Positions 3,967-27,777 of a stretch of DNA of 27,777 nt are shown here, one piece after another (the stretch's first letter is position 1; each line of letters starts with the position of its first letter). The translations under genes were made by a program, and so were the position numbers. Origin of the DNA: Calditrichia bacterium (GTDB lineage Bacteria > Calditrichota > Calditrichia > RBG-13-44-9); the NCBI GenBank assembly GCA_037381445.1, contig JARRQT010000017.1, positions 23,360 through 51,136 of the forward strand, read 5' to 3'. Below the pieces are notes generated by a model that was not told where the DNA came from, made no database searches, and saw nothing but the letters and a program-made list of their open reading frames with translations.

Positions 3967-6333
3967 TTACTGGAGCGATTCTTCTTGTCCGTCATTCTCC
4001 CGGGAGCTCCGCCGACTGATGGCGGCCTGTTTCCGCCAGTTCACCCGGCACAGGGGCAGATACTTACAAACCCTGCCATTCCAGCCCCGGCATTGCGATT
4101 CATCCATGGTATGAGGAAATTTTCCGGAGCGGATATTCCGGATGTAACCGGCTGCGAATTCCAGACTTCGTTCAAGAAATTCTTCCAGGCTGACGGGAAC
4201 ATCGTCGACGGCATATTTGTCATTAGGCAGAATGACTGACTTTCCTGCCTCGGTGCTGCCCACTGAAAGCCGGCTGTCCAGAAAAGCAATTTTTTTCCGG
4301 ATATCCTGTTCTCTTTTCAGGGAATAGTAGGCGCCGCCCGCCATGTCCAGAACAGGGTATTGATCCTTCAAAAGATCGAACACAGCTTTGAGGTATATGG
4401 GGAGTTGCAGGTTCTGACCTTCCCATATACTGCTTGTATTGGGGGCTGTCCCGGTTTTGTAATCCACCACCAGCAGCGCGCCGCCATCGGAAATCTCCAC
4501 CCTGTCTATTTTCCCCTTGAAATAAAATTTTTCGCCGTCCTGCTCCCAAAGAAACGGTTCTGTGGTCGATACCGGATCAGCATCTTCCTCCAATTCCCGG
4601 GTATTTCCGAAAGACAATTCAAAGTGCTTCGGGGCGGTGGAATACTGACCGGCTATTTCCTGTTCATATTCCCAGAAGGCGGGGAACAGTCCGCGGTGGC
4701 GGGAGCTTCCTAGGTAAAATTCTTTCTGCAGCTGCCATAAAATGCTCTGCGTCACCGGTATCCTCTCCAGCTCTTCTTCAGCAATGGCAAGCAATCGGGA
4801 CAAGTCCCGCCGCTCCGCTGCATTTTCCCGGTAAAACCTGAACAAAATATTATGAACGGTGATCCCCTTGTCCAGGGGTGTGAGCAGCTCATCCGCCTCC
4901 TCTTCGGGTTCCAGATGCAGAATCCGCTTAAAAAAATAAATAACGGGACAGCGGGCATATTCTTCCAGCTGCGTGATGGAAAATCGCCGGGATTTGTAAA
5001 CAGCATCCAGCCAGCGGGATGTCACTTCATCCCCTTCAAGCATTCCCTCCCATTGCGAATTATCATCCGTAATTTCCCGGCGCCTCTCAACCGATTTCAG
5101 GAAATTGAACTGCGCTATGGCATCTTTGTCGAGTATGCTTTGCAGGTTTCCAGACAAGCCGGTTGACTCAAATCTTTTCAAATCCGCATTCCTGTCGAAG
5201 CGGATGATTTTTGTCAGAATATCTGCAGCGGTATATAATCGGGTATCCCGTCTCGCGGAGAGCTTCCCTTCCGAAATTCTCTCGATCTCCCTCAAAAAAG
5301 CGGACGGCAAAACCGGATTGTCCTGATGATAGCGGGGACTAGAAAACTGAATAATTTCCGTATCAGACTGCAGAATTTTCAGAAATAACTCTCGGTCACG
5401 GTAAATTGTCTCATCCGGTAGGAAAGGTTTTAGTTCCCGGGCGATGGTCTGGGGATGAGTGAAGCCCGGCGAACCCTTGCCGGGAAAGACCCCGTCTTTC
5501 ATTCCCAATACAAAAATCGCTTTTGATTTTCGCGTTGGCAGATTTTTAAGGGGAGTTATCTGAACGCCGAAATTTTGCGGTCTCCTGAGGCGGTATGACG
5601 CCGATCCCAGCATCAGCTCCAAGATGTTACTGAGTTCTCGGACATCGAACCTCCTACCGGGATAGTACTCACGGATGATTGTCTTCCAGTTATTAAGGGC
5701 ATCAAGAAACGAGCGCAGTGCAGCAAGATTTTCTTCCATCCAGGCACCGTCTCTCTCACCGGACTCTCTCTGAATCCTCCGGGTTATCTGGTGGACGGCG
5801 ATAAAATCAGACCAGAATTGGTAGATGCTGTCGGCGCTTTGCGGCTGCTCAAAAAATTCTGCCTGACGGAAAAGCTGCGTGATGTTTTGGATAAGCGAAT
5901 CGTACCTTTTTGCCCCGGTTTCATCCGGTTCATTGTTATGTACGGAGCTGGCATAGAAGGCCTTCTCCCTTTTCAGCAATTCCAAAATTTCCTTTTTACC
6001 GCCCCGGGCACGAAGACTGTTTAAAATATTTTTATATTTTGTGTCTTTCAGCGACTCATTGTAATTAAAAAAGGGCGATTGCAGGATTTTCCGCACAGTC
6101 AGCAAAGAATAGTCTTCCGGCACGAGTTCCGGAATCAGCAAAAAGTGTTGAATCACCAGCGTCTGATCAATGAAGCGGACTTCATTAAAAGTGAAAGGAA
6201 TTTTATAGCGCCGGAAAACCGCCTCCAATAAACTGCGATATGCGGGCAGGACCGGTGAACTCACTCCGATGTCGCTGAACCGCCAGTTTTTATTCGCAAC
6301 AATTTTCCGGATTTCTCCTGCCAGGCTTTCCAT
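3967..6333 (-). CDS. C-terminal fragment of the AddB-like protein, with PD-(D/E)xK nuclease and Fe-S cysteines
   Basis: FSITQLEEYARCP, KGITVHNIL, HFELSFG, GKIDRVE, DYKTG, QLPIY, C-x7-C-x5-C. The AIFVLGMKDGVFP motif resembles the UvrD C-terminal domain. Confidence 0.7.
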   Translation of the reverse strand: MESLAGEIRKIVANKNWRFSDIGVSSPVLPAYRSLLEAVFRRYKIPFTFNEVRFIDQTLVIQHFLLIPELVPEDYSLLTVRKILQSPFFNYNESLKDTKYKNILNSLRARGGKKEILELLKREKAFYASSVHNNEPDETGAKRYDSLIQNITQLFRQAEFFEQPQSADSIYQFWSDFIAVHQITRRIQRESGERDGAWMEENLAALRSFLDALNNWKTIIREYYPGRRFDVRELSNILELMLGSASYRLRRPQNFGVQITPLKNLPTRKSKAIFVLGMKDGVFPGKGSPGFTHPQTIARELKPFLPDETIYRDRELFLKILQSDTEIIQFSSPRYHQDNPVLPSAFLREIERISEGKLSARRDTRLYTAADILTKIIRFDRNADLKRFESTGLSGNLQSILDKDAIAQFNFLKSVERRREITDDNSQWEGMLEGDEVTSRWLDAVYKSRRFSITQLEEYARCPVIYFFKRILHLEPEEEADELLTPLDKGITVHNILFRFYRENAAERRDLSRLLAIAEEELERIPVTQSILWQLQKEFYLGSSRHRGLFPAFWEYEQEIAGQYSTAPKHFELSFGNTRELEEDADPVSTTEPFLWEQDGEKFYFKGKIDRVEISDGGALLVVDYKTGTAPNTSSIWEGQNLQLPIYLKAVFDLLKDQYPVLDMAGGAYYSLKREQDIRKKIAFLDSRLSVGSTEAGKSVILPNDKYAVDDVPVSLEEFLERSLEFAAGYIRNIRSGKFPHTMDESQCRGWNGRVCKYLPLCRVNWRKQAAISRRSSRENDGQEESLQ

Positions 6334-7271
6334 TTCCCGCAGGGGATCAACCGGTTTTGTGATGCCAGGCTTTCCATTTCCCGCAGGGGATCAACCGGTT
6401 TTGTGATGGAAATCCTGTCTCTTATTTCTAGCGTCTGAGCCTCTATGTTGAACAGGGAGTCGCTTAATCCGTCGCTGTCCGGAAACGGGGCTGTTGCATC
6501 TGCGATTTTTTTCAGTTTCTCAAACAGCGATTCTTTCGCCTGAAATATTTCAGGATTGGTGCCATACGGAAAAAGGAGTAACACATTCATGCCGATTTCG
6601 CTTAATTTCCGCACCAGCAGCAGATGACTTTCTTTGAAAAATGAGACATCCTCCCAGATAATTGTCTGCAGTCCGGGGAAAAAGTTCAGAAAAAAAGGCT
6701 GCGAAATTTTTTTGGTCAAACGGCGGAGGAGTTCGGCCTCGTCAAGTAAATGTCCGCTCACAATTTTCCGGTAGTCCGCGAAAAGAACAGACAAATCCTT
6801 CTCCAGCCTGTCTGCCGGCGTGAGGGGCAATCGGCTCGGATGATGAGACAGGATTTTATCGTCGGCATTATTCAGACGCACCTCATCAAAAAACTGCAGC
6901 AGGCTTCCGATCATCCCGTTTGGGATCTGCTGGTCCGGGTAATCGAAATATCCGAAATCATTCTTCTTTTGGGCCGCTATCTCCTGCAGGATAACCGCTT
7001 GCTGAACAGAGTCCGCTTGCCTGGCCGGAATATTGGATTTTTCAAATAGCCGGTTCAGGAAATTTGAATAAGTCAGAAAAGGAAAATCCGAAGCAATGTC
7101 GCCGGATTTCTTTAAAAAATATTCCTTTTTCAACTCCATCACCCTTGCGTTGTCCGAAGCCAGATAAAGACAGCTGCCGTCCTGACGGATCAGTTCAGAA
7201 TGATCTTTGAAAAAATTCTTTATGAGGTGGGACAGGTTCGCCCCATACTGTAATTCGATTTGGCCAGTCAT
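6261..7271 (-). CDS. N-terminal fragment of the AddB-like protein (inactive helicase-like region)
   Basis: 336-aa ORF with no recognisable Walker A. It leaves the native frame inside the duplication after ...DPLREMESLA. Confidence 0.6.
   Translation of the reverse strand: MTGQIELQYGANLSHLIKNFFKDHSELIRQDGSCLYLASDNARVMELKKEYFLKKSGDIASDFPFLTYSNFLNRLFEKSNIPARQADSVQQAVILQEIAAQKKNDFGYFDYPDQQIPNGMIGSLLQFFDEVRLNNADDKILSHHPSRLPLTPADRLEKDLSVLFADYRKIVSGHLLDEAELLRRLTKKISQPFFLNFFPGLQTIIWEDVSFFKESHLLLVRKLSEIGMNVLLLFPYGTNPEIFQAKESLFEKLKKIADATAPFPDSDGLSDSLFNIEAQTLEIRDRISITKPVDPLREMESLASQNRLIPCGKWKAWQEKSGKLLRIKTGGSATSE
6319..6408. repeat. Exact 44-bp tandem duplication
   Basis: tgccaggctttccatttcccgcaggggatcaaccggttttgtga at 6319-6362 and 6363-6406, followed by a further 'tg'. 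Confidence 0.97.
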
Positions 7272-13100: not shown

Positions 13101-13694
13101 ATGATGGATAATAAACGCATAAGCTTGCTTGTTTCCAGAACCAAAGAAGGAGACCAGGAGGCTTTTACAGAGCTGGTAAATTTCTTCAGCGAGAGAGTAT
13201 ACAATTTGGCGCTACGAATTCTGAAGAGTCCCGATGATGCTTCAGATGTATTACAGGAGACGTTTTTGGCGGTATACGAAAAAATTGGTACCTTCGACGG
13301 ACGTTCCAATTTCTATACGTGGGTGTATCGAATTGCTACGAACTTTGCTCTCATGAAATTACGCAAGGATAAACGGACCATTCTGACTGACGAGGATATG
13401 GAAGCAAAATTCGATAGTCCGGATAAGATGCAGATCAGTGAATGGAGGGACTTGCCGCTTCATGATATGTTAAGTAAGGAATTCCGGAAGCATTTGGATG
13501 AAGCGGTGGATGAATTGCCGGAAATTTACAGATCAGTATTCATTTTGAGAGATATTGAAAATATGTCCATCAAAGAGACGAGCGCTATTTTGGGAATTAC
13601 CGAATCGAATGTAAAAATTCGTTTAAAGCGGGCCCGGCTTTTTCTAAGGGAAAAGCTGGCAAAATATATGGATGAATATCTAAAGGAAGCATGA
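13101..13694 (+). CDS. ECF-family RNA polymerase sigma factor
   Basis: GDQEAFTELV, DASDVLQETFL and FYTWVYRIATN (region 2). LPEIYRSVFILRD...ETSAILGITESNVKIRLKRAR (region 4). Confidence 0.95.
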   Translation: MMDNKRISLLVSRTKEGDQEAFTELVNFFSERVYNLALRILKSPDDASDVLQETFLAVYEKIGTFDGRSNFYTWVYRIATNFALMKLRKDKRTILTDEDMEAKFDSPDKMQISEWRDLPLHDMLSKEFRKHLDEAVDELPEIYRSVFILRDIENMSIKETSAILGITESNVKIRLKRARLFLREKLAKYMDEYLKEA

Positions 13695-13948
13695 AGTATA
13701 TGAAGAAGCACAGCAAGAAAATTCTTGATGAACTCTGCAATTACCTGGGGCAGGATGTGGATCATCCCATGTGCAAGGAGCTGCTGCAGCACGTGAATGA
13801 ATGCCCGGACTGCCGTATCTATCTGGACACCATAAAAATGACGGTTTCCCTTTACCGGAAAACCTACGAACCGTCGCCGGTACCATCCGATGTGAAAGAG
13901 AAATTATTCAAAACGTTAAAACTGAAGCAATCCAAAATTCAGAAATAA
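13691..13948 (+). CDS. Zinc-binding (ZAS, zf-HC2) soluble anti-sigma factor
   Basis: HVNECPDC is an Hx3Cx2C motif. 85 aa, no TM segment, ATGA coupling to the sigma gene. Confidence 0.88.
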   Translation: MKYMKKHSKKILDELCNYLGQDVDHPMCKELLQHVNECPDCRIYLDTIKMTVSLYRKTYEPSPVPSDVKEKLFKTLKLKQSKIQK

Positions 13949-15098: not shown

Positions 15099-15430
15099 TT
15101 TTCATCCTCCGACTATTGGGCTTTGCGATACGACATATGCTTGCAGGCTCAAACAGTGATCCCGCAACAAATGGCCTATGCAGACATTCTTCAGTTTCTC
15201 CTATGAATTACCGAAGATAATGATTTTTGTTCGAATATGTTCTTTCGAATTAGCGAGGCATTTGACCGGTTTCTAAACTTCTCCCGAATATTACTTTCAA
15301 ATTTCTCTCACAGAAACTAAAAATGATGCATATTATTTGATTTTTGAAAATGCCGGTCATAAATTCAAATGTATCAGGTATGTTGATTTTTTTAAAGAAT
15401 ATAATTTCCATCCTGCTCCGGAGAAGCCTA

Positions 15431-15943
15431 ATGCCAGAACCGGTCATTCTTCACCCTGCCGTCGTTCATTTCGCCATCGCCCTGTTTCTGGTCAGCCTCC
15501 TGTTCGATGTCATCGGTGACCTCATCGGAAACAATAAATTCCACAGTGCAGCCTGGCTGAATCTGATTTTTGCCGGGATTGCGGCCGTTGCGGCGGTCTT
15601 GTCCGGATTGTGGGCCAAAAGCAGGGCTTTTATCCCCCCGGAGGCACGAGACACTTTGAATGTTCACCAACTGATGGCTTTCTTCATCGCCGGGGTGATT
15701 CTCATTTTGTTGTTCTGGCGAATCAATGCAAAGGGCTTACTGCCCGCGAAGGGAAAGGCATTTTATTATCTGATTTCCCTCGTTGGCCTAGGTCTTCTGA
15801 TCATCGGGGCGTATCATGGAGGCAAACTGGTTTATCACTATGGCGTCGGCGTCAGAAGCACGGTGGAACAACCGAAAATACCGGAGAAGCCGCAGAAGAA
15901 TAGGCAACGGCCGGGAGATGAATTTGTACCAGGAAAAAATTGA
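15431..15943 (+). CDS. DUF2231-like 4-TM membrane protein
   Basis: LHPAVVHFAIAL N-terminal motif, an internal His, and GAYHGGKLVYHYGVGV. GGAG RBS before ATG 15431. Confidence 0.8.
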   Translation: MPEPVILHPAVVHFAIALFLVSLLFDVIGDLIGNNKFHSAAWLNLIFAGIAAVAAVLSGLWAKSRAFIPPEARDTLNVHQLMAFFIAGVILILLFWRINAKGLLPAKGKAFYYLISLVGLGLLIIGAYHGGKLVYHYGVGVRSTVEQPKIPEKPQKNRQRPGDEFVPGKN

Positions 15944-16185: not shown

Positions 16186-16214
16186 TTGACAATTTCACAT
16201 GAAAAGGATAAATT
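16186..16214 (+). promoter_or_regulatory. Putative sigma70 promoter for the psiE-like/cytochrome cluster
   Basis: TTGACA-N17-TAAATT, with the inverted repeat TTTCA-CA-TGAAA in the spacer. Confidence 0.55.
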
Positions 16215-16288: not shown

Positions 16289-16768
16289 ATGCCAGCCAGG
16301 AAACTCATTCAGTCTCTCTTTCCGTTTGGTGAAAATTTCATTTATATCGTTGTTGGTTTTTTGCTTATCGCTGCCTCCTTCTTCCTCGTATTTGACATTT
16401 TCAGAATTTTTCTGCCATTCTCAGATTCGGGCGGCCTTATCCGCTGGGCGCTTGAAACAATAGATAAGATCCTTCTCATGCTGATGATAATTGAAATCCT
16501 TTACACAATGCGGGCATCATTTAAAGAGCATGTGCTTAATGCGGAGCCATTTCTGATTGTGGCGCTCATTGCCGCCATCCGGAGGATACTGGTCATCAGC
16601 GTGGAAAGTGCTTGCCTCCCTGAAAAATTTGTAAATCATATGATAGAAATCAGTATTTTGGGTGTTTTGACTTTTATATTTGTCGTTCCGATCATTTTTT
16701 TCGTCGCCGGACCACAGCAAACACATAATTTAACAAAACGCATTAAGGAGGAGGTATGGACCCTTTGA
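16289..16768 (+). CDS. PsiE-family (phosphate-starvation-inducible E-like) membrane protein; C-terminus possibly frameshifted
   Basis: DKILLMLMIIEILYT and EPFLIVALIAAIRRILVIS motifs, 4 TM segments, GGGGAG RBS. Confidence 0.8.
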   Translation: MPARKLIQSLFPFGENFIYIVVGFLLIAASFFLVFDIFRIFLPFSDSGGLIRWALETIDKILLMLMIIEILYTMRASFKEHVLNAEPFLIVALIAAIRRILVISVESACLPEKFVNHMIEISILGVLTFIFVVPIIFFVAGPQQTHNLTKRIKEEVWTL

Positions 16769-17838
16769 CCCTGATCCCCACCCCGGATACCATACCCGCA
16801 CCATCCTGGCTCTTTCTCCTTCTGGATGTTTCCACATTCACCCTTCACATTCTTCTCATCAACATTGTCCTGGGAGGCAGTTTAATCCTGCTGTTTACCA
16901 GGGCGGGAAAACAGAGTGCGGAACCGGAGAACAAATTGCAGGAAGGAATCGCCGGCAAGCTGCCGGTCATCATCGCGCTGGCTATCAATTTTGGAGTAGC
17001 ACCGCTGCTGTTTCTGCAGGTTATTTACGGACATTTGTTTTACACCAGCTCGGTCCTCATGGCGGTGTACTGGATTTTGATTATCCCGTTACTCATCGTG
17101 GGATATTACGGCGCCTACTACTATATCCGTAAAAAATCAAGCGCCCCGATGCTATCCAGAATCGCTATTTTGCTTACCAGCCTGATCCTTTTATATATCG
17201 GTTTTATTTTTGTCAGTAATATGACCATGATGGCCCAGCCAGAAAAATGGGTAGCTTACTTCGAAAACCGGGGCGGCACCCTGCTGAATTCGGGCGATCC
17301 CACTATCATCCCCCGTTACCTGCATTTTGTCACGGCCTCCATTGCCATCGGCGGATTGTTCCTGGCAATTGTCTGGTGGTTCCGGAAACAAAAAAATGCT
17401 GCCGGCGCAGAGGAGAAAATCAAATCCGCGCTCCGCATTTTTGGAATTGCGACCGCCATGCAGGTGGTTATCGGTTTCTGGTTCCTGCTGGCTCTTCCCT
17501 CTGAATTCATCATTCAGTTCATGGGGCAGAATTTGTTTTTCACACTCTTGCTTTTCGCGGGAATCTTTTTGGGCATCGGCGCTATCGTCTTCGCTTTTCT
17601 GGGAAATTTGACCTTCACTGCTGCCTTCTTTGTCGCCACGATTCTGACCATGGTTATCACGCGTGCCAATCTGCGCGCTCTTTACCTGGGCGATGCCTTC
17701 AGTCTGAGCAGTCTGAAGGTCGCTCCCCAGTACGGCGTCATGGCATTGTTCTTCATTATTTTCGCGGTGGGGATTGTCTCCGTGGTTTACATGGTAAGAA
17801 TGGCAATTTCTGCAAATGAAAGGAGGATTGCCTCATGA
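16756..17838 (+). CDS. Polytopic membrane protein, divergent cytochrome bd subunit I (CydA)-like partner subunit
   Basis: About 9 TMs. LHILLINIVLGG, AINFGVAP and RYLHFVTASIAIGG align by eye with CydA TM1, TM2 and TM5. Strong RBS AAGGAGGAGG. Confidence 0.7.
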   Translation: MDPLTLIPTPDTIPAPSWLFLLLDVSTFTLHILLINIVLGGSLILLFTRAGKQSAEPENKLQEGIAGKLPVIIALAINFGVAPLLFLQVIYGHLFYTSSVLMAVYWILIIPLLIVGYYGAYYYIRKKSSAPMLSRIAILLTSLILLYIGFIFVSNMTMMAQPEKWVAYFENRGGTLLNSGDPTIIPRYLHFVTASIAIGGLFLAIVWWFRKQKNAAGAEEKIKSALRIFGIATAMQVVIGFWFLLALPSEFIIQFMGQNLFFTLLLFAGIFLGIGAIVFAFLGNLTFTAAFFVATILTMVITRANLRALYLGDAFSLSSLKVAPQYGVMALFFIIFAVGIVSVVYMVRMAISANERRIAS

Positions 17839-20516
17839 ACTATCCGATTTGGGAAATTCCGGCCATCGGGGGCGGGAGCCTCATCGCCCTCATTGCGATT
17901 TTGCACGTCTATATTGCTCACCTGGCGGTCGGCGGAGGCATGTTTATCTGGCTGACCGACCGGAAGGGATACCGCGAAAACAGTGCGGAGATTCACAACT
18001 ATGTTCACAAACATACCTGGTTTTTCCTGCTGCTGACCATGGTATTCGGAGGCATTACAGGCGTCGGCATCTGGTTTATTATCGCACTGATCCATCCCGC
18101 GGCAACCTCTTCCCTCATTCACAATTTTGTGTTTGGATGGGCAATCGAATGGGTTTTCTTCCTGGGTGAAATTACGGCCTTACTGGTCTATTATTATCAG
18201 TTCGACCATCTCACCCAGAAACAGCGCATGCAGCTTTCCTTTCTATATTTTCTGTTTGCCTGGCTGAGCCTGTTCATTATCAACGGAATACTCTCTTTTA
18301 TGCTCACGCCCGGCCAGTGGTTGGAGACCGGAAATTTCTGGCACGGCTTCTTTAATCCCTCATTTCTGCCCTCTCTCCTATTCCGCACCTTTGCCGCTGC
18401 CATGATCGCCGGTTTATTTGGGTATGTGACCACTGTTTTTCTGAAAGACAGCGCGTTCCGTTCCGCCATGTTAAAATATTCCACCCGCTGGCTGCTTTAT
18501 CCCCTGCTTGGCCTCATCCCTTCCGGCATTTGGTACTATTTCACCGTTCCGTCCGTGAACAGAGTAAGTGCCTTCAGCCTGAATCCCGAAACCGGCATTT
18601 TTGCCAGCCTCTTCATCGTTGCCTCCATATTGATTTTTCTCCTGGGGATTTTTCTTACCATGCGTTCAGGCGTCGCTGCCCAGCGAATCGCAACTTCCGC
18701 CTTGCTGATTATCGGCCTGGGATGGATGGGAGGGTTTGAGTACATGCGGGAAATTGCCCGTAAACCTTTTGTCATCAGCGACTATATGTACTCCACTTCC
18801 ATTTTAAAGTCGGACGCCGGGAAGCTGAGCCGGGAAGGGATTTTGGCAAATGCCAAATGGACATACGTTAAGCGGGTAACGCCACAAAACCCCATGGAAG
18901 CCGGGGAAGAAATCTTCCGCCTGCAGTGCTCGGGCTGTCATACCCTGAATGGAATTCGTAACGATATTATTCCCCAAACCGAACTGCTCTCCTATACGGG
19001 CATGATATCATTCCTTTTCGGGCAGGGAAAAGTACATACCTATATGCCTGAATTTATTGGCACGGAACAGGAAAAAGATGCGCTTGCCGCATATATTGCA
19101 GGCGGTCTGCACAAGAATCCGGTAATCATGGAGCCGCAGCCTTATCAGATCCAGCCGATATTGAATACTATTCCTGATTACGATCAAAAGAAAGCGGAGT
19201 ATATCCTTCTGGTCTGGAATGACCTGGGAATGCACTGCATATCGGACAGCGACCCCTGGTTCGTCATTTTGCCGCCGGCCAATACGCTGGAAGCACAGAT
19301 CATCAAACGGGGGCCTCTGCCGCAGCTTGTTGCCGATAACATTGAACTGACTTATCGGGTCGAACCAGGATTTGAAAATCCGGCAGCCCATACCCAATTC
19401 TGGGATTACGCGGAGAGAATTTTTGGGGCGAAGCTGCCCCAAAATGTGGGGCTTCACGGAAACGGCCTATCGGGAAAATTTAAATGGAATCCGGACCGGA
19501 ACAGTTTTATTGTGGAAACCATTCCGGTGATGCCCTACAACGATGACGGTTCGTTTAATCCATACCCCATTTTCACGGTGGAAGCCCGCGACAGCGCCAG
19601 CGGGAAGCTGCTGGCCGTAACTCAGGCCGTTACACCCACCTCCACCGAGATGGGATGCCGCAATTGCCACGGCGGAGGATGGAAAAGGAACGGAATTGCC
19701 GGCGTCTCGGACGAAACAGCAACCAATATTCTCAAGATCCACGACCGTCTGAGCGGCACCAACCTTTATGACCTGGCGCGCAAAGGTCAGCCTCAACTTT
19801 GCGCCGGGTGCCATCCCGACCCGGCATTGGGAGCAGAGGGAAAAGCGGGACAGATGTATCTTTCCGCTTCCATACATGGCTGGCATGCCAATTATATGCA
19901 TCTGAAAGGAGCGCAGGCATGCGGCATGTGCCATCCGGCCTATGCAAGCGGGCGAACCCGCTGCAGCCGTGGAATACATGGCGAGGTGGGAGTAACCTGC
20001 GTGGATTGCCATTGTGAACTTGCCGACCATGCCCTGACCCTGCTGAAGGGTCAAGCCGACAAACCCGGCGCCACGCGATTAATGGCCCACCTCACACCGA
20101 CCAAGGCAGAAAACAAAGATCAGATCAATCCGCGCAGCCCTTGGCTGAATGAGCCGGATTGTTTGACCTGTCATGAAGGTTTTCAAAAACCGGCGTCAAA
20201 TGCCACCTCCTATAATGTCTGGAGTAAAGCGTTCGAAGATCTTTACCGGATACGAACCGACAATGCGGGAATCCGCTGTGCAGCCTGCCACAATTCAACC
20301 CATGCGGAGTATCCCTCAGAAAATCCCTTCGGAAGAGACCGCGATAATATTCAGCCGCTGCAATACAGCGGGGCACCTTACCCCATCGGGTCGAATATCT
20401 CCTGCGAAGTCTGTCATATGCAAAAAATGGAGAATCCCATTCATCATCCGAATTTCTACCGGGAATTCAGAAACAAACGGACAGAACAGAAAACGGCAGT
20501 GGCAGCCAATTTTTAG
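17835..20516 (+). CDS. CydA-superfamily membrane domain fused to a monoheme and a heptaheme c-type cytochrome domain (8 CxxCH)
   Basis: N-terminal 8 TMs with LHVYIAH, AIEWVFFLGE, SFMLTPG, FFNP and REIARKPFVI. Heme motifs CSGCH, CRNCH, CAGCH, CGMCH, CVDCH, CLTCH, CAACH, CEVCH. AGGAGG RBS and ATGA coupling. Confidence 0.88.
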   Translation: MNYPIWEIPAIGGGSLIALIAILHVYIAHLAVGGGMFIWLTDRKGYRENSAEIHNYVHKHTWFFLLLTMVFGGITGVGIWFIIALIHPAATSSLIHNFVFGWAIEWVFFLGEITALLVYYYQFDHLTQKQRMQLSFLYFLFAWLSLFIINGILSFMLTPGQWLETGNFWHGFFNPSFLPSLLFRTFAAAMIAGLFGYVTTVFLKDSAFRSAMLKYSTRWLLYPLLGLIPSGIWYYFTVPSVNRVSAFSLNPETGIFASLFIVASILIFLLGIFLTMRSGVAAQRIATSALLIIGLGWMGGFEYMREIARKPFVISDYMYSTSILKSDAGKLSREGILANAKWTYVKRVTPQNPMEAGEEIFRLQCSGCHTLNGIRNDIIPQTELLSYTGMISFLFGQGKVHTYMPEFIGTEQEKDALAAYIAGGLHKNPVIMEPQPYQIQPILNTIPDYDQKKAEYILLVWNDLGMHCISDSDPWFVILPPANTLEAQIIKRGPLPQLVADNIELTYRVEPGFENPAAHTQFWDYAERIFGAKLPQNVGLHGNGLSGKFKWNPDRNSFIVETIPVMPYNDDGSFNPYPIFTVEARDSASGKLLAVTQAVTPTSTEMGCRNCHGGGWKRNGIAGVSDETATNILKIHDRLSGTNLYDLARKGQPQLCAGCHPDPALGAEGKAGQMYLSASIHGWHANYMHLKGAQACGMCHPAYASGRTRCSRGIHGEVGVTCVDCHCELADHALTLLKGQADKPGATRLMAHLTPTKAENKDQINPRSPWLNEPDCLTCHEGFQKPASNATSYNVWSKAFEDLYRIRTDNAGIRCAACHNSTHAEYPSENPFGRDRDNIQPLQYSGAPYPIGSNISCEVCHMQKMENPIHHPNFYREFRNKRTEQKTAVAANF

Positions 20517-20784: not shown

Positions 20785-23700
20785 ATGCGAAATGAAATTT
20801 TGAAAAAATTTCCCACAATAGATAAAAAGCTTGCTGAAAGTGAATTGAAGAGATGGTTCCGGGCGCCCGAGAAACAGTTCTCCCGCTTTCTTTCAGCACT
20901 TACTGGTTTGCAAACCGGACTGGAGAGACTTTCCCTCCGGAATGAGGACTTGCCGCAATATTGGGGAAATCTGGATCAAAATATCAGGGAAATCCTGGTA
21001 TGGCTGGAGACACTTCCCCTGATCCTTGATGAGTTTTCAGAAGATCTTGTTTGGTCGGAATTGGAGGCGGCCTTTCAGAAATCACTTTCACCGGTTCCCC
21101 AAAATATTTCCATCCTGCCGGCCGCAAAAGACATGACGATCCGGGATAATGACAGCTTTGTTAGGAAAGTTGTCAAATGGAGATTCTGGCTGCATATGAA
21201 CATAATCAATGTGAGTTGGCCGGTAATCAACAGGTTTCGCGCCCTCTTAAAAAAGCCGCGGTTACCTGTGCCCAAATCAGAGCGAAATATTCCATTTCAT
21301 CTATTCCTGAAAAAACATATCGAATTGCCTTGTGCTTCTTCTCTTTTGCAGAACTGGCAGATTTTCCTGAAGCAAATCTATCTGTATTTCCATGAAGCAC
21401 ATTCTATTCACGAGAAGATTAATTTTGAAATTCTCTCCCTGGAGAATTTTCGTGAAGTCTGCCAGCACACCCGGTTCATTATGTCGCGGGAGACACTGGA
21501 AAACCTGAGCGAATATATTCAGGAAATAACCGCCGTCCGGCAAAAAACAAAGCAGCTAAAAAGAGATCTTAATAAAGATATCAAAGAAGAATGGAAATCA
21601 ACCGAAGCCGCCGCAAAAGAGAGACTTGCGGAGGCAGGTACAATTTCTTTGCCCATCAGAAATTTCTCTCATAAAAGGATAAAAAGGGAATGGGCGAGGC
21701 TGCAGCAAAAATTTGAAACCAGTCTGTCAGCCTGGAGTGAACAATTTGAAAGGGAAAAAGAAGATTGGTCAAAAGATCTGGAGCTGTCACTGTTTCAGCT
21801 GCAATCCCTCAGAATCTGTACCAATACCGTTTATACGATCCGGCATAAAATCTCTGAAAATATCATCCCCTCCATTGCCGATGCCAAAACCACAATTTCC
21901 CGTTCTTTGACAAAATTCAAAACTGTTAAAGGCGAATTAAAGACCAAATTAAAGGGCGCCATAATTCATGAAAACCGTTCCTTGCTGCATCAGCTGCGCC
22001 GCGAGAGACTTCCCCAAATGATTGACACAATAATCCGGGTCGATCTTGAAAAAATTTTGCACGACTATCTCACCGGTATTGAATATGCGCTGGAACTCCT
22101 TCCTGACCAGCACACCATTTTTCGCCAGCAAAACATGGAGGGATTACTCCCCCGCTCAAAAAGTGACACCATCGAATTGAAAGAACTGGTGAGCGAAGAA
22201 TTGCTTTCCGGGCTGGCAATTTCCCACCGGAAAACTGCCGGCGAATTGCATGAACGACTGGAGCAAATGCGGCGCAACATCTCGGAATTGGATCAGATTG
22301 TTGAATTCAATTTGGAGGCGGCTCTGAATCTTTTGCAGCAGGGAAAAGAAACTGAAATTACCGACCATGCACTTCAGATAGTTAATGAAGGTTTGGAGCG
22401 AACACATAACCAGATCGACGATCTTGAACACCAATGTCGGCAAATTTCCGAAATAATAGCAGACCAGCTTCATCGCAATACATTCCATTTTGCCGAACAG
22501 ATTCAGGAGCTGGCGGATAATGAAAAAATTTTTCAATTAAGACTCCGGCTGGCAAGAACCAAAACACGCGAAAGGATTCACTCATACCGGAAAGAAATTC
22601 TCGTTTTTTTGAAAAAGCTCTTTCCGGTTCTAAAATCGGTGCTTATTACTTTTTTTCAGAAAATTACCTACACCTATAAAGGTTTCAGAAAGATCAGCGG
22701 ACTTTCGCCGGAGACTGTAAAAATTGAAGATAAACTAACACAGTATCTGTCTGAAACTCAGGCCAAGTTCAACGCGCTTCCCTATGTTTATCAGCGTCTT
22801 TTCCGGCCTGAGCCGCTGGAAGATGAACGTTTTTTTGTGGGCCGCGAGATGGCATTCGATTCCCTCCGCAATGCCTTTCGGAGCTGGGAGAAGAACCAGT
22901 ACGCCACCACCGTTCTCATTGGCGAGAAAGGCAGTGGAAAAACAACCCTGCTGAATTTTGCCCGATCCCAGTTTTATCATGACTATAAGATTATCATGCA
23001 CAATTTTTCAGAGACTGTTATTTTTGAAGAGGATTTATTAGCCCATTTGAAATCGGCATTCGGGAATAATTCAGTGAAATCTCTGGCCGACCTGGAAAAT
23101 AAGATTCAGGAATATGATTCGCGCCAGGTTTTCATTTTGGAAAACATTCAGAACCTGTTTTTGAAAACAGTTGAAGGATTTAACGCTCTGGAACGATTTC
23201 TTCTTTTTATTTCAAGAACCAGTGAAAGAGTTTACTGGATTTCAACCTGCACCCTTTACAGCTGGCAATATCTCGAAAAGGTGATGCAAATTTCAAAATA
23301 TTTCCAATATCCGGTGCAATTGGGCGGATTGACCAAGGACGAAATTAAAAACATTCTTTTAAAGAGGCATCGGGTCAGCGGTTACCAGCTGCAATATGAT
23401 GCGCCCGACCATTTTGATAATTCTCGTAAATTTAAAAAGTTGACAAAAGATACCTCACGCCAGGCCTACCTCGAGGACATTTTCTTCAAAGATTTGAATG
23501 AATTGTCAAACGGCAATATTTCTGTAGCCATATTGTTCTGGCAGCGGGCCATTCGGGAAGTTTCCAAAGAGAAACTGATTGTATCGCCCATTGATAATTT
23601 CGACTTCAGTTTCCTCCATCAACTCCCTTCCGAGGAACTTTTTACGCTCATGGCCCTTTTACAGCACGAAATATTGAGCGACCATCATCACAGTATTATA

Positions 23701-23850
23701 TTCCGCCAAAATCCTGAAAAGAGCTCAATGATAATGGACAGGATGCAGCATTCCGGAATGCTGGTCAAAAATCAGTTCGGATATCAAATCCATCCATTTT
23801 TGTACCGGCCGGTCGTCAGGGTATTAAAATCCAAAAACCTCTTGCATTAA
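20785..23850 (+). CDS. Large hypothetical protein with a helical N-terminal region and a C-terminal P-loop (AAA-like) ATPase domain
   Basis: 1021 aa. FFVGRE motif, Walker A GEKGSGKT (22921-22944), Walker B-like VFILEN and SNGN motif. Confidence 0.85.
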   Translation: MRNEILKKFPTIDKKLAESELKRWFRAPEKQFSRFLSALTGLQTGLERLSLRNEDLPQYWGNLDQNIREILVWLETLPLILDEFSEDLVWSELEAAFQKSLSPVPQNISILPAAKDMTIRDNDSFVRKVVKWRFWLHMNIINVSWPVINRFRALLKKPRLPVPKSERNIPFHLFLKKHIELPCASSLLQNWQIFLKQIYLYFHEAHSIHEKINFEILSLENFREVCQHTRFIMSRETLENLSEYIQEITAVRQKTKQLKRDLNKDIKEEWKSTEAAAKERLAEAGTISLPIRNFSHKRIKREWARLQQKFETSLSAWSEQFEREKEDWSKDLELSLFQLQSLRICTNTVYTIRHKISENIIPSIADAKTTISRSLTKFKTVKGELKTKLKGAIIHENRSLLHQLRRERLPQMIDTIIRVDLEKILHDYLTGIEYALELLPDQHTIFRQQNMEGLLPRSKSDTIELKELVSEELLSGLAISHRKTAGELHERLEQMRRNISELDQIVEFNLEAALNLLQQGKETEITDHALQIVNEGLERTHNQIDDLEHQCRQISEIIADQLHRNTFHFAEQIQELADNEKIFQLRLRLARTKTRERIHSYRKEILVFLKKLFPVLKSVLITFFQKITYTYKGFRKISGLSPETVKIEDKLTQYLSETQAKFNALPYVYQRLFRPEPLEDERFFVGREMAFDSLRNAFRSWEKNQYATTVLIGEKGSGKTTLLNFARSQFYHDYKIIMHNFSETVIFEEDLLAHLKSAFGNNSVKSLADLENKIQEYDSRQVFILENIQNLFLKTVEGFNALERFLLFISRTSERVYWISTCTLYSWQYLEKVMQISKYFQYPVQLGGLTKDEIKNILLKRHRVSGYQLQYDAPDHFDNSRKFKKLTKDTSRQAYLEDIFFKDLNELSNGNISVAILFWQRAIREVSKEKLIVSPIDNFDFSFLHQLPSEELFTLMALLQHEILSDHHHSIIFRQNPEKSSMIMDRMQHSGMLVKNQFGYQIHPFLYRPVVRVLKSKNLLH

Positions 23851-23860
23851 GGGAGAACCA

Positions 23861-24841
23861 ATGATACAAAAGATGTTCCGGGCAACTCTGATGGTTGCAG
23901 CTTTGGTGATGATCATACAGGGCGAAAATTTGTATTCCCAGGAAAATTCCGATACGTCTTCCTCCGGAAAGGGTGAAAAAGCTGCTGTTACATCGGGCAG
24001 TTCGATGACACAGGCACTAAAAGAATCACAACCCCAGATTAAATGGTCCATTTCTGTTTCAAAAATATTCTGGTCAATCGTTATGTTTCTGGTGGCTTTG
24101 CTGGTAATTAAAAATCTGACCCGTCTTCTGGAGGCCATTGCAGAACGATGGACAAATCTAAGATTAACGATCAAAGGAATCATTCCTATTTTTCGTATCT
24201 TCGGATGGACATTCGTGATCTATGTTATCATTGCAGGGATTTTTGCGCCTCCCATCCAGACCCTGATCGCGGTAACTGCCTCCGCAGGCATTGCGGTTGG
24301 CTTTGCAGCCCAGGATATTCTTAAAAACATCTTTGGCGGCATAATGATTCTGTTCGACCGGCCTTTTCAGGTCGGCGACAAAATAAAGGTCGGGGAGCAT
24401 TATGGCGAGGTGATCAGCATAGGCTTGCGTACCGTTCGCATCGTCACGCCGGACGATTCCGTGGTATCCATCCCCAATAGCGAAATTGTGAACAGCTCCG
24501 TTTCGAATGCGAATTCCGGGGAATCATATTGTCAGGTAGTGGCTGAGTTATTCCTGCCGCCTCATATTAATGTCAGCAGGGTAAAACAGATTGCGTACCG
24601 TGCAGCGGCGGTTTCCCGTTACGTATATCTGAACAAACCGATTGCCGTTATCCTGAAAAACGAGATCCACCAGGGCCGCTCCTTGATGAAACTGCGCCTG
24701 AAGGCCTATGTGTTGGATATCCGGTATGAATTCCCGTTTATGAGCGAAATGACAGAAATTGTGATGGAAGAGTTACTGGGACAGGGACTGGTGACCGCGA
24801 AAGATCTTGCCATGCTGTCCGCTATTCAGGAAAGTAATTAA
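23861..24841 (+). CDS. MscS-family mechanosensitive channel
   Basis: AGIAVGFAAQDILKNIFGGIMILFDRPFQVGDKI and GEVISIGLRTVRIVTPDDSVVSIPNS. Confidence 0.93.
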   Translation: MIQKMFRATLMVAALVMIIQGENLYSQENSDTSSSGKGEKAAVTSGSSMTQALKESQPQIKWSISVSKIFWSIVMFLVALLVIKNLTRLLEAIAERWTNLRLTIKGIIPIFRIFGWTFVIYVIIAGIFAPPIQTLIAVTASAGIAVGFAAQDILKNIFGGIMILFDRPFQVGDKIKVGEHYGEVISIGLRTVRIVTPDDSVVSIPNSEIVNSSVSNANSGESYCQVVAELFLPPHINVSRVKQIAYRAAAVSRYVYLNKPIAVILKNEIHQGRSLMKLRLKAYVLDIRYEFPFMSEMTEIVMEELLGQGLVTAKDLAMLSAIQESN

Positions 24842-25056
24842 ACCGCTGAGCACTTTGTCTTCCCATAAAATAATGAATGGAATTATGTTTCTTTGAAGAC
24901 ATGACCGCAAAACGATCAATTTTTTATTAAATTCCGGACGAAGAGAGGTCCGGGCGGCTTTAAACGCTATGAAATATGAAGAAACAGGTAGTCCAATAAA
25001 AGTAAGATTTGAATTTTTGCCACACTTAAAACAAAATATTATGCGGAGGGAATACC

Positions 25057-26106
25057 ATGAAATTCAGATTAAAGAAATCGATTATGTTTCTAATGCTATT
25101 GCTGATGTGCCTGCCGGCTATGGCCGGTGATCAGCCCGATTCGCTTTTTACGGAATTTAAGGAAAATTTTAAGAAGGAATATTTCAGCGTCGGCGCGTTA
25201 TTCCAGGCAGTCACGGATTTCCAGATCGAACGGTCTTTCTCGGGAAATAACGGATTCAATATCTCAAATATGCGGATTAATTTTTCGGGAATATTCGACG
25301 GCGGTTTCGGCTATTTTTTCCAGGGAAACCTGATTGACTCTCCCTCCATTCTGAGCGCGGATATGTTCTATGAGACATCTCCTGCCTTCCGTTTGACCGT
25401 CGGACTGTTCAAAGCGCCCTTCAGCAAAGAATTTCTGACCAGTGCGGCAAATATTGATTTCGTTAACCGGTCGCAAATCGTAACCTACTTTGCTCCCCGC
25501 TGGCAGATCGGCGTACAGGCCAGCGGATGGTTCCGAAACAGCTCCCTCTATTATGCGGGCGGATTGTTTAACGGTAACGGATTTGATGGAAATAATAATG
25601 ACAATAATAATTTCATGGCGGTCGGCCGCATTGCGTATTATCCCAGGAAAATCAACCAGTCGGCTGATAAGCATCTGGAGGCCGGCTTCAATTTCGCTCA
25701 CAGTAAAGATGATAATCTCGATCTGGGCAGCGGATTATACCCGCACTTTTTCGGCAAACGGACCCTTGTCGGCGCGGACTTCCGTTACATCATGGATCGC
25801 TGGCTGTTCGCCGGGGAAATCATATCCGCTTCGCTGGAGCCCGGCCTCGGAAGAGAAATCAGTCCCTACGGTTTTTATCTGACAGTGGGAGATATGCTGA
25901 GCGCCAAATCCCAGATTTTGTTCCGCTGGGATAGCTTTCATTCCGATGGACTCCTGTATCCGGACCAGGATTCTGATTTGCTGATCTTAGGATACAATTA
26001 CTGGCCGACACGGGTTACTGAATTACAGGTCAACTATATTATCAGAACGCAGGATATGGAATTTGAACACAGCCAAATTCTGGTAAATGCCCAGGTGGCA
26101 TTCTAG
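25057..26106 (+). CDS. Outer-membrane porin, OprO/OprP-like beta-barrel
   Basis: Signal peptide ending AMA, GLFKAPFSKEFLTS...FVNRS motif, alternating beta-strand pattern and C-terminal Phe. GGAGG RBS. Confidence 0.82.
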   Translation: MKFRLKKSIMFLMLLLMCLPAMAGDQPDSLFTEFKENFKKEYFSVGALFQAVTDFQIERSFSGNNGFNISNMRINFSGIFDGGFGYFFQGNLIDSPSILSADMFYETSPAFRLTVGLFKAPFSKEFLTSAANIDFVNRSQIVTYFAPRWQIGVQASGWFRNSSLYYAGGLFNGNGFDGNNNDNNNFMAVGRIAYYPRKINQSADKHLEAGFNFAHSKDDNLDLGSGLYPHFFGKRTLVGADFRYIMDRWLFAGEIISASLEPGLGREISPYGFYLTVGDMLSAKSQILFRWDSFHSDGLLYPDQDSDLLILGYNYWPTRVTELQVNYIIRTQDMEFEHSQILVNAQVAF

Positions 26107-26126
26107 TTTGGCACGGAGACAGATCA

Positions 26127-26942
26127 ATGGCTAAAAAACAGACTTCGGATGGGAGGATTTCTTTGTGGGGCGACTTTCCGCTGCCGGATAACGAGGAAAG
26201 GCAGTGGGAGGTCGGTCCTTTCCGCTTGCATTATAAAATCTCCGGAAATGAACTATGGACGGAATATTCCCGGCAAAATTCCAAAGAAGGCAGCAATAAG
26301 CCGGCGCAATCTGCGGAGAATACCAGCTGGTCCCGCTTTGCACTCCGGCACGGTTATGCCAAAATCCGCATTCTGCCTGTTCTTCCCGATCGTGCGGTGG
26401 TTGTGAAACCGGAAACTGCCTTTTGGATATCGAAAGGAGCAAAATCTCGGGTCTACGTAAGAGTACCTGTCTGGGTTCAGATGCGGCTGATGGGAAGGCA
26501 GCCGGTAACCATACTGGACGTTTCTACAGTTGTATTATCAAACACCTGGTTCGGCGGTTTCATGCAGGGGGAACTGAGCTACTGGATATCCTCCAGCGCT
26601 CGGGTAGATATCTTGCCCGACCCCTCACGGCCTCACATGGCAATCTGCCCAATCCAGATTATCAACAACTCCAATAGCGACCTGCTGGTTGAGAAAATTG
26701 GTTTGCGGGTTCCTTATCTTTCCCTGTTTTATGACAGCGGACAGTTATGGTCGGATGAAATGAAGATCTCCTACCGCGGCGGCGAAGCGGTCAGCAGCCT
26801 GTCGGTGTCAGGTATTGTCCCGCCGGAACTGCCCGGCGGAAAATTAATTTCGGCACCGCGGGATCATATGAAAAAGAATTTCGCAGCCAAGACATTTTCG
26901 TCCATTAAAGATTTGCCCGGATTAGGCATATTTTCAAATTAA
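26127..26942 (+). CDS. Hypothetical soluble protein, DUF432-like
   Basis: 271 aa with no TM or signal peptide. LPDRAVVVKPE...VYVRVPVW and LSNTWFG...GELSY resemble DUF432 proteins (from recollection). GGAG RBS. Confidence 0.65.
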   Translation: MAKKQTSDGRISLWGDFPLPDNEERQWEVGPFRLHYKISGNELWTEYSRQNSKEGSNKPAQSAENTSWSRFALRHGYAKIRILPVLPDRAVVVKPETAFWISKGAKSRVYVRVPVWVQMRLMGRQPVTILDVSTVVLSNTWFGGFMQGELSYWISSSARVDILPDPSRPHMAICPIQIINNSNSDLLVEKIGLRVPYLSLFYDSGQLWSDEMKISYRGGEAVSSLSVSGIVPPELPGGKLISAPRDHMKKNFAAKTFSSIKDLPGLGIFSN

Positions 26943-26956
26943 GGAGGAGCCCGCTC

Positions 26957-27777
26957 ATGTCTCTCATCAGCACGGAATTCAGTCAATATTTTACGCCGGA
27001 AAAGCTTGCTTCTCTGATGCGTATTGGTTTCCTGCTGTTTATTATATTGCCATCAGTCCTTTTGCTCAGCAAATGGGTCGGCAAGTATGCGGCAAAAAAA
27101 CTGTCTCCGCAGCAGGGAATGGTTTTCCGAAAATTATTTCTTTATGCAGGAGTCGTTATTATTGGATTTTCACTGGTCAGTGAAATGGGATTTCAGATCA
27201 CCCATCTGCTGGGTGCAGCCGGAATCCTGGGGATCGCCATCGGTTTCGCTTCCCAAACCAGTGTTTCAAATGTGATCAGCGGGCTTTTCCTGATTGCCGA
27301 AAAGCCCTTTGAGATAAATGATGTGATTGTGGTGGGAGACACAACCGGACAGGTGCTTTCCATCGACATGCTGTCCATAAAATTGCGCACTTTTGACAAT
27401 AAATTTGTGCGGATCCCCAATGAAACTATCGTCAAGAGCCAGGTTACTAATATCACACGGTTTCCCATCCGCCGGATGGATCTGGACATCGGCATTGCGT
27501 ATAAAGAGGATGTCGCCCGGGTTCGTAAAGTCCTGCTGGAAATCGCCCGTGAGAATCCGCTCTGTCTGAATGAGCCGGAACCCATGGTTATTTTTTCGGG
27601 ATTCGGTAACTCCTCTGTGGACCTGACTTTTTTGATCTGGGCTGCCAAATCGGATTGGATCAAAGTTAAGAACAGCATCATGGAGGAGGTCAAGAGACGC
27701 TTTGATGAAGAAAAAATAGAAATTCCCTTTCCCCACCTTTCCCTCTACAGCGGCACCGCCACGCAGCCAATGCCAAT
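26957..27777 (+). CDS. mscS: MscS-family mechanosensitive channel, 3'-truncated by the window (absent from the ORF track)
   Basis: AAGGAGG RBS, ATG 26957, open to the window end: MSLISTEF...LLGAAGILGIAIGFASQTSVSNVISGLFLIAEKPFEIND...RIPNE...IEIPFPH. Confidence 0.93.
   Translation, partial: MSLISTEFSQYFTPEKLASLMRIGFLLFIILPSVLLLSKWVGKYAAKKLSPQQGMVFRKLFLYAGVVIIGFSLVSEMGFQITHLLGAAGILGIAIGFASQTSVSNVISGLFLIAEKPFEINDVIVVGDTTGQVLSIDMLSIKLRTFDNKFVRIPNETIVKSQVTNITRFPIRRMDLDIGIAYKEDVARVRKVLLEIARENPLCLNEPEPMVIFSGFGNSSVDLTFLIWAAKSDWIKVKNSIMEEVKRRFDEEKIEIPFPHLSLYSGTATQPMP

Follow-up and report, generated by a model that had tools for sequence, protein, structure and literature searches.

The window analysed here is a 27,777-nucleotide stretch of contig JARRQT010000017.1 from a Calditrichia bacterium (GenBank assembly GCA_037381445.1, positions 23,360 to 51,136 of the forward strand). 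It encodes two adjacent membrane proteins, referred to below as subunits b and a, which to judge from their sequences belong to OR-C1, a catalogued family of CydA homologues, and which probably constitute a cytochrome c-fed O2 reductase that receives electrons from periplasmic c-type cytochromes rather than quinol and serves oxygen scavenging. The original prediction, made from the sequence alone, had already recognised two coupled membrane protein genes at 16756-17838 and 17835-20516, and these indeed overlap as ATGA, with the ATG of a shared with the TGA of b; purine-rich AGGAGG stretches are present upstream of both start codons. The features of the locus are as follows (ORF, open reading frame; TM, transmembrane helix).

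16289..16768, + strand: PsiE-family membrane protein (PF06146, E 4.3e-12), its last 13 nt shared with the start of b
16756..17838, + strand: subunit b (OR-C1b type), 360 aa, nine predicted TM (ORF, hydropathy and CydA-fold model)
17835..20516, + strand: subunit a (OR-C1a type), 893 aa, eight TM, eight CxxCH motifs (ORF, hydropathy and model)
17835..18794, + strand: membrane domain of a, residues ~1-320, eight TM, CydA fold, no Q-loop
18885..19112, + strand: class-I monohaem c domain of a, residues ~351-426 (PF13442, E 3.5e-5, below the cut-off; 1w2l_A, Z 6.4, a middling score)
19200..19631, + strand: haem-free Ig-like beta-sandwich of a, residues 456-599, with a WNDLGMHC motif
19656..20447, + strand: seven-haem c module of a, residues 608-871 (PF22113, above the cut-off)

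Two CydA-like subunits and no CydB

The per-protein Pfam scan assigned neither b nor a to the CydA family (PF01654), and Pfam and NCBIfam scans of b returned no meaningful family and no Pfam match; in the genome-wide PF01654 search, gene a was found at E 5.5e-5, below the cut-off. Single-sequence searches of the Protein Data Bank (PDB) did not reveal the bd relationship of either subunit, nor did a search with the b profile; only the a profile retrieved a bd chain (5doq_A, E 6e-4). The AlphaFold2 model of a (mean pLDDT 91.2) superimposes on Geobacillus CydA (5ir6_A) with Z 30.3 and rmsd 2.5 Å over 310 residues, and the top 20 rows of the Foldseek search with this model are exclusively bd oxidase chains; the model of b (mean pLDDT 83.4) matches the same chain with Z 27.0 and rmsd 3.6 Å over 342 residues, the best CydB-type chain scoring Z 24.1. 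Thus, the CydA likeness claimed for both proteins was borne out by the fold comparison that had been proposed as a check. Aligned with each other, b and a prove to be distant paralogues (hhalign E 2.1e-5, probability 77%). The absence of CydB from the locus was likewise confirmed: the only cydB of the genome (PF02322) lies on contig C169, next to a canonical cydA.

Hydropathy and the model agree on eight TM helices in a, with no ninth, and the Lys/Arg clusters in the loops at residues 40-62, 120-136, 200-220 and 274-286 imply an N-out, C-out arrangement of these helices with the haem tail outside. By the same two approaches b has nine helices, two of which (260-281 and 285-311) are back-to-back and could be counted as one. 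The OR-N proteins, also named in the original prediction, have 10 or 14 TM helices and therefore do not apply; the c-haem-fused OR-C group named there as well turned out to be the right one.

Residues of a were mapped through the anchored motifs of the CydA encoded in the same genome together with the profile alignment to 5doq_A; a three-way MAFFT alignment that included this CydA misaligned the middle helices and was discarded. The labels His186, Glu445 and Arg448 follow the E. coli numbering. Conservation was assessed in the 92 of 150 diverse a-type representatives that have a full membrane domain. Subunit a keeps H24 (codon 17904) at the His19 position, E105 (codon 18147) and E112 (codon 18168), with six residues between them, at the Glu99/Glu107 positions, E306 (codon 18750) at the Glu445 position and R309 at the Arg448 position, as well as a tyrosine pair, Y119/Y121, near the channel glutamates. 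H24, E105 and E112 are each retained in 90 representatives, R309 in 91 and E306 in all 92. The haem b558 ligands are lost: F183 occupies the His186 position, a histidine anywhere in the TM5 stretch is found in only 3/92 representatives, and Met393 has no counterpart in a. Furthermore, the surroundings of the site are unlike those in CydA, with E302, R305 and R184 of a near-invariant. H96 is part of the predicted interface, but as a candidate haem ligand across the subunits it was rejected, being kept in 55/92 representatives only.

The link between TM6 and TM7 of a is ~13-17 aa long, compared to ~90 aa in the genome's own CydA, which carries the Q-loop motif (QPAKLAALE at residue 250), whereas this motif (P.K[LFM].[AS].E) is found in 0/116 a-type and 0/120 b-type sequences, in agreement with the earlier claim of a short loop without a quinol-binding segment.

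In the complex prediction, a and b reach an ipSAE of 0.90 against 0.00 for the best control, with at least 97% of the contacts common between runs and a partner pLDDT of at least 88; in a benchmark, 116 of 157 solved pairs attained the ipSAE mark, as did 2 of 215 mismatched pairs. The predicted interface is formed by TM2 and TM3 of a and by TM2, TM3 and TM9 of b; in its use of TM2, TM3 and the TM9 of the partner it resembles that of CydAB. This result may stem from the likeness to solved CydAB structures and does not by itself show binding. A genome scan with the b profile confirmed at least 591 stretches, of which 80 loci were kept. Gene a follows b in 67 of these; the remaining 13 comprise seven loci with no a detected downstream (one of them, L076, with an a-like fragment upstream) and six with less than 1.2 kb of downstream sequence, and in all five tested genomes whose b locus lacked a, it was encoded elsewhere. 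An OR-C1 heterodimer of a and b is accordingly what the models predict.

OR-C1a has been described as an eight-TM homologue of CydA without a quinol site, with a periplasmic haem c extension of up to eight sites and with OR-C1b encoded next to it (Murali, Gennis & Hemp, bioRxiv 10.1101/2021.01.16.426971). Each defining feature of the published description that was checked is found here: two adjacent CydA paralogues, with b instead of CydB; the His19 ligand in subunit I (H24); the channel glutamates of a, six residues apart and accompanied by the tyrosine pair, and a b that lacks the glutamates and keeps His19; and an eight-TM subunit I that lacks the Lys252/Glu257 quinol site and has a C-terminal periplasmic haem c extension. 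For b, hydropathy and the model give nine TM helices, against eight in the paper; the legend of its Fig. 1 does not list this count among the criteria. In the accessible part of the same source, Desulfovibrionia are the richest in haems, whereas the closest named homologues of the present pair are from Calditrichia and KSB1; neither the layout of one haem, a beta-sandwich and seven haems nor H190/M299 of b (see below) appears in the main text, although the supplements may cover them.

Compared with canonical CydAB (qOR1-3; Geobacillus 5ir6 and 5doq, E. coli 6rko), the fold of both subunits is alike and the His19, Glu99/Glu107, Glu445 and Arg448 positions are common to a; the pair differs in lacking the Q-loop, His186/Met393 in the catalytic subunit and TM9 in a, in having a partner nearer to CydA than to CydB, and in its eight c haems. 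A 2026 structure paper states that all characterised bd enzymes share CydA and CydB (PMC12994193). The archaeal CydAA' (qOR4a/4b) is likewise a heterodimer of two CydA paralogues, the second of which keeps His19, and has been shown to reduce O2 but, unlike the bacterial pair discussed here, it keeps the quinol site, uses quinol and contains no c haems (bioRxiv 10.1101/2021.01.16.426971, as far as accessible).

The c-haem arm and its variants

Subunit a contains exactly eight CxxCH motifs (residues 365, 608, 656, 696, 722, 776, 815 and 857), and all 24 of their C/C/H positions are invariant in 116 aligned homologues, so the motifs are not due to chance. The first is located 56 residues past R309, inside the monohaem domain (C365/C368/H369, with M404 as the distal residue), and is separated from the remaining seven (608-861) by ~240 haem-free residues that include the beta-sandwich. 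Hence, the original prediction, in which ARKPF was followed directly by eight motifs, was correct as to their number and the missing ninth TM helix but has to be amended as to the order, which is monohaem domain, beta-sandwich and then seven motifs.

Among the 92 representatives, the first CxxCH is present in 83 and M404 in 76, and the number of motifs is 0 in 8 proteins, 1 in 45, 2 in 18, 3 in 2, 4 in 1, 7 in 1 and 8 in 17, some of them possibly fragments; therefore, the monohaem domain is the constant part of the arm and the seven-haem module is optional. Of the complete a genes in the sampled loci, 53/60 have eight motifs. C468, in the beta-sandwich, and C710 are kept or lost together, and a disulfide between them is likely from this pattern. 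The seven-haem module has eight further conserved histidines (636, 681, 684, 715, 732, 823, 870 and 871), which would suffice to provide every one of its haems with bis-His ligands. The alternative of a catalytic haem within the arm was rejected, given the lack of a CxxCK motif and this sufficiency of histidines; H467 (K in 10/66) is left unexplained. Fold searches, in which the membrane domain was dominant, gave no clear match for the seven-haem module, which does not speak for a new fold.

In some relatives the module is not fused. In L054, L059 and L065 it is an ORF of its own right after a monohaem a, with clear signal peptide-like starts in L054 and L065; in L101, L102 and L110 it has a membrane anchor; and in L087 and L089 a related lipoprotein follows a two-haem a/b pair. 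These separate exported, anchored or lipoprotein forms support the periplasmic location and a wire-like role of the haem arm. In a quick tree the split forms are found among the fused ones in two separate supported branches; the short-form label of this tree wrongly takes in the truncated or broken rows L008, L014, L027 and L074 and the five-haem L048.

Further variants were observed. Four loci of the host's class (L084, L085, L087 and L089) show a second OR-C1 arrangement, in which an a with two c haems precedes b; the seven-haem lipoproteins that follow the pair in L087 and L089 are 814-821 aa long and have a related ELGMHC motif. In the divergent loci L105 (7863-11641) and L106 (3252-6994), c-haem motifs occur on both the a-type (one haem) and the b-type protein (two haems), with a dihaem protein encoded upstream. 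The host genome also encodes a signal peptide-bearing paralogue of the beta-sandwich and haem module (G000, contig C47, 22048-23103; WNDLGMHC, with three CxxCH in the visible frame), which the end of the contig may truncate.

The a-type family has over 3,700 matches. The 80 b loci come from KSB1, Bacteroidota, Ignavibacteriota, Desulfobacterota, Thermodesulfovibrio and others, and the distribution is patchy: in the host's class, 22/86 genomes match the b profile, 15 of them with full-length strong matches, and in the sulfate-reducer family of G086 (the Desulfobaculum locus) 72/121 sampled genomes match a.

Conserved residues of b and genomic setting

Subunit b has Y105 and no Glu at the proton-channel positions and R303 at the Glu445 position. 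It keeps H31 (His19 position), H190 (His186 position) and M299, which are conserved in 78 (with two gaps), 79 and all 80 of the b loci, respectively; among 10 more distant b proteins, nine have both H190 and M299, and L110 has lost the two together. Such conservation hints that b binds haem, with H31, H190 and M299 as possible additional ligands. Given that M299 is on TM8 and not at the TM7 position of Met393, the geometry of an H190/M299 pair is unproven; M256 was set aside as a Met393 equivalent, being kept in only 57/80 loci.

Proteins resembling b are also found elsewhere. A ~435-aa protein of the host genome (G000, contig C112, 9204-10523, + strand) has a membrane domain resembling b (matched by the b profile at E 2.6e-11) to which a single haem c is fused; its gene immediately precedes the pentahaem and molybdopterin-like genes in an alternative complex III-like cluster, beside haem-copper oxidase genes. 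Equivalents are found at L086 (7272-8567) and L088 (6701-7999); all three keep the counterparts of H31, H190 and M299, and no a-type partner was seen at these clusters.

The residues of b bear on how quinol may still be involved. The claim that the enzyme is fed from the periplasm by its multihaem arm and not by quinol agrees with the Q-loop-free bd fold and the periplasmic c-haem arm, but the exclusion of quinol is not complete because b has a His at the His186 position and the invariant Met. The main rival reading, in our judgement rather unlikely, is that b binds one haem resembling b558 (H190/M299) and another at H31, and so ties the menaquinone pool to the c-haem arm (an example being formate to formate dehydrogenase to c haems to menaquinone), with O2 reduction at a as a secondary or alternative branch. 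The near-invariance of the three residues, the joint loss of two of them in L110 and the haem c-fused b-like proteins of alternative complex III clusters, C112 included, would fit such a conduit; the lack of the Q-loop motif in all b sequences, the placement of M299 on TM8 and the strong conservation in a of the full O2-site and proton-channel set speak against it. Moreover, the potential of His/Met-ligated class-I haems is usually too high for menaquinone reduction. In an extended form of the same idea, to which we give a similarly low probability, the three-haem job of CydA would be split over the two paralogues and supplemented with a fourth site, a carrying the O2-reducing haem pair and b the His190/Met299 b558-like haem and the His31 haem; the complex would then be the junction between the c-haem wire and the quinone pool, a cytochrome c:quinone conduit of bd fold from which O2 reduction branches off, and its b module would have been reused, fused to haem c, in alternative complex III clusters.

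An ordinary quinol oxidase in rearranged form, with a non-canonical quinol site on b and the arm as an accessory electron store, appears quite improbable. The complete nine-TM CydA fold of b with its His186 equivalent is compatible with it, whereas the Lys252/Glu257 motif is missing, the retention of the first haem c and of its Met in most a-type representatives fits an obligatory relay, and the multihaem partner stays next to the pair even when it is not fused.

No donor gene adjoins the pair in the window; only the PsiE-family gene overlaps b. A PsiE-like gene is present in 11/80 related loci, in the closer relatives mostly as the immediate upstream neighbour of b; the gene in the window is likely a co-transcribed accessory gene of b/a. 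Scanning for promoters and terminators gave no useful signal (11 promoter-like sites, compared to 6.6 +/- 2.8 in shuffled sequence), the best promoter-like site, 16186-16214, being upstream of the PsiE gene. Besides PsiE, no credible operon partner was found in 10 or more of the 80 loci among the 65 of 263 listed neighbours that were scanned against Pfam. Canonical cydA is encoded in 5/80 and cydB in 6/80 loci, the cydA-bearing ones representing about three independent lineages (an estimate with no formal control), and a flavodiiron protein is encoded at L040, L046, L049 and L070. In L046 the order is rubrerythrin, desulfoferrodoxin, flavodoxin, cydAB, a c3-type cytochrome, flavin reductase, flavodiiron protein, b and a; in the Desulfobacterales loci, the b/a genes are at the end of such an oxygen-defence cluster.

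These neighbours are also relevant to the possibility, which we consider improbable, that the pair serves anaerobes in detoxification, its bd-like di-haem site reducing another small oxidant (NO, H2O2, or sulfur or nitrogen species) with electrons supplied by the c-haem arm. The frequency of the family in anaerobes such as those around Desulfobaculum, the proximity of flavodiiron and peroxide-defence genes and the near-invariant E302, R305 and R184 around the site are in line with this, whereas the ligand and proton-channel set is that of O2-reducing bd enzymes, the two-paralogue CydAA' reduces O2, and the arm has no CxxCK catalytic-haem motif.

Three of 12 hand-picked stretches (L099, L100 and L103) encode, in this order, b, a monohaem a, a 10-motif multihaem protein and formate dehydrogenase. 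The layout of L099 (b-type gene, monohaem a-type gene, multihaem protein with beta-sandwich) is that of the FdhM/Cfd (fdh2) operon DVU2485-2481 of Desulfovibrio vulgaris, and the masses of its a-type and multihaem proteins, 47.7 and 61.9 kDa, equal those listed for DVU2484 and DVU2483 in the accessible part of PMC10920352. In that operon the arm is separate, has 10 CxxCH motifs and is accompanied by formate dehydrogenase, whereas the arm encoded in the window is part of a, with no gene for a donor alongside. The formate dehydrogenase of the fdh2 operon is O2-insensitive, according to the portions available of bioRxiv 2022.01.18.476765 and PMC13397495. These formate dehydrogenase operons would also suit the menaquinone-linked conduit, as would the detection of DVU2484 under anaerobic conditions described below.

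Other genes of the window include a DUF2231 membrane protein (15344-15943, same strand as b/a, 345 nt upstream of the PsiE gene), an ECF sigma factor with a small zinc-finger anti-sigma-like gene behind it (13101-13948) and an AddB-like DNA repair gene (3967-7271, - strand) split into the consecutive ORFs 6261-7271 and 3967-6333; the end of the first of these looks out of frame, suggestive of a frameshift or an assembly error. Downstream of a, a + strand run (20785-27775) encodes a 1021-aa protein with a C-terminal AAA/STAND-like domain, two MscS-like proteins, a porin and a DUF432 protein.

Proposed electron path and significance

Sequence and models establish the fold, topology, conserved residues and haem motifs; each step of the path outlined below is what we infer from them. 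A bd fold without the quinol-binding loop and with eight c-haem motifs makes a flow of electrons from periplasmic cytochromes to O2 likely, and a periplasmic cytochrome donor has been proposed for OR-C1 (bioRxiv 10.1101/2021.01.16.426971). In relatives, the oxygen-defence clusters speak for a role with O2, and the formate dehydrogenase genes encoded after the pair and its multihaem protein for such a donor. Electrons would pass from a periplasmic donor through the seven c haems, which are likely bis-His-ligated, to the His/Met haem c (H369/M404); this haem, located just after TM8, would replace the lost haem b558 as the immediate donor to two b- or d-type haems in a, one ligated by H24 (with E105) and the other by E306. 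In enzymes that lack an insertion in TM3, such as that of Geobacillus, a six-coordinate His/Glu haem is combined with O2 binding at a Glu-ligated haem near the surface (PMC8951039, section 2.4, on which this comparison is based), and this arrangement is predicted for a. Because the spacing of E105 and E112 is six residues, as in Geobacillus, the predicted O2 site is the haem of E306, close to the periplasmic surface. O2 would be reduced to water with protons drawn from the cytoplasm via E112/E105, so the reaction would be electrogenic without pumping, and b would take the position of CydB and may hold additional haems. The complex would serve O2 scavenging or micro-oxic respiration fed by the periplasmic cytochrome pool; candidate donors are the alternative complex III or other multihaem proteins of the genome and, in sulfate reducers, formate dehydrogenase or cytochrome c3. 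The host indeed encodes an alternative complex III-like cluster (C112) and many multihaem proteins.

Several observations weigh against a cytochrome c-fed O2 reductase. The host already encodes canonical cydAB and has four COX1-family matches. O2-related neighbours are missing from most of the 80 loci, the Desulfobacterales clusters are related to one another and do not count as independent cases, and the counts come with no formal neighbourhood control. The invariant H190/M299 of b are not accounted for by the proposed path, and neither the type of the haems (b or d) nor the assignment of their ligands comes from measured geometry, both being derived from alignment. No biochemical study or activity measurement of any OR-C protein was found in the literature, and from 2021 on the names OR-C1a and OR-C1b were found only in bioRxiv 10.1101/2021.01.16.426971. 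Finally, DVU2484 was detected in cells growing anaerobically on lactate and sulfate (seven spectra, three peptides; PMC10920352, Table 1); this detection fits a constitutive defence as well as a role unrelated to O2.

The pair is thus a real, well-conserved member of a catalogued family that apparently has been the subject of no biochemical study, and it adds no new architecture, the range of up to eight haem c sites having been described already. The value of the copy in the window is that of one more expression target, together with the testable prediction that b binds haem. The OR-C1 family is widespread and poorly annotated; if it indeed consists of cytochrome c-fed O2 reductases, OR-C1 would be a cytochrome c oxidase that uses the bd fold and no copper, by means of which anaerobes, such as sulfate reducers, Calditrichia-like bacteria and Bacteroidota, could couple periplasmic oxidations to the removal of O2.

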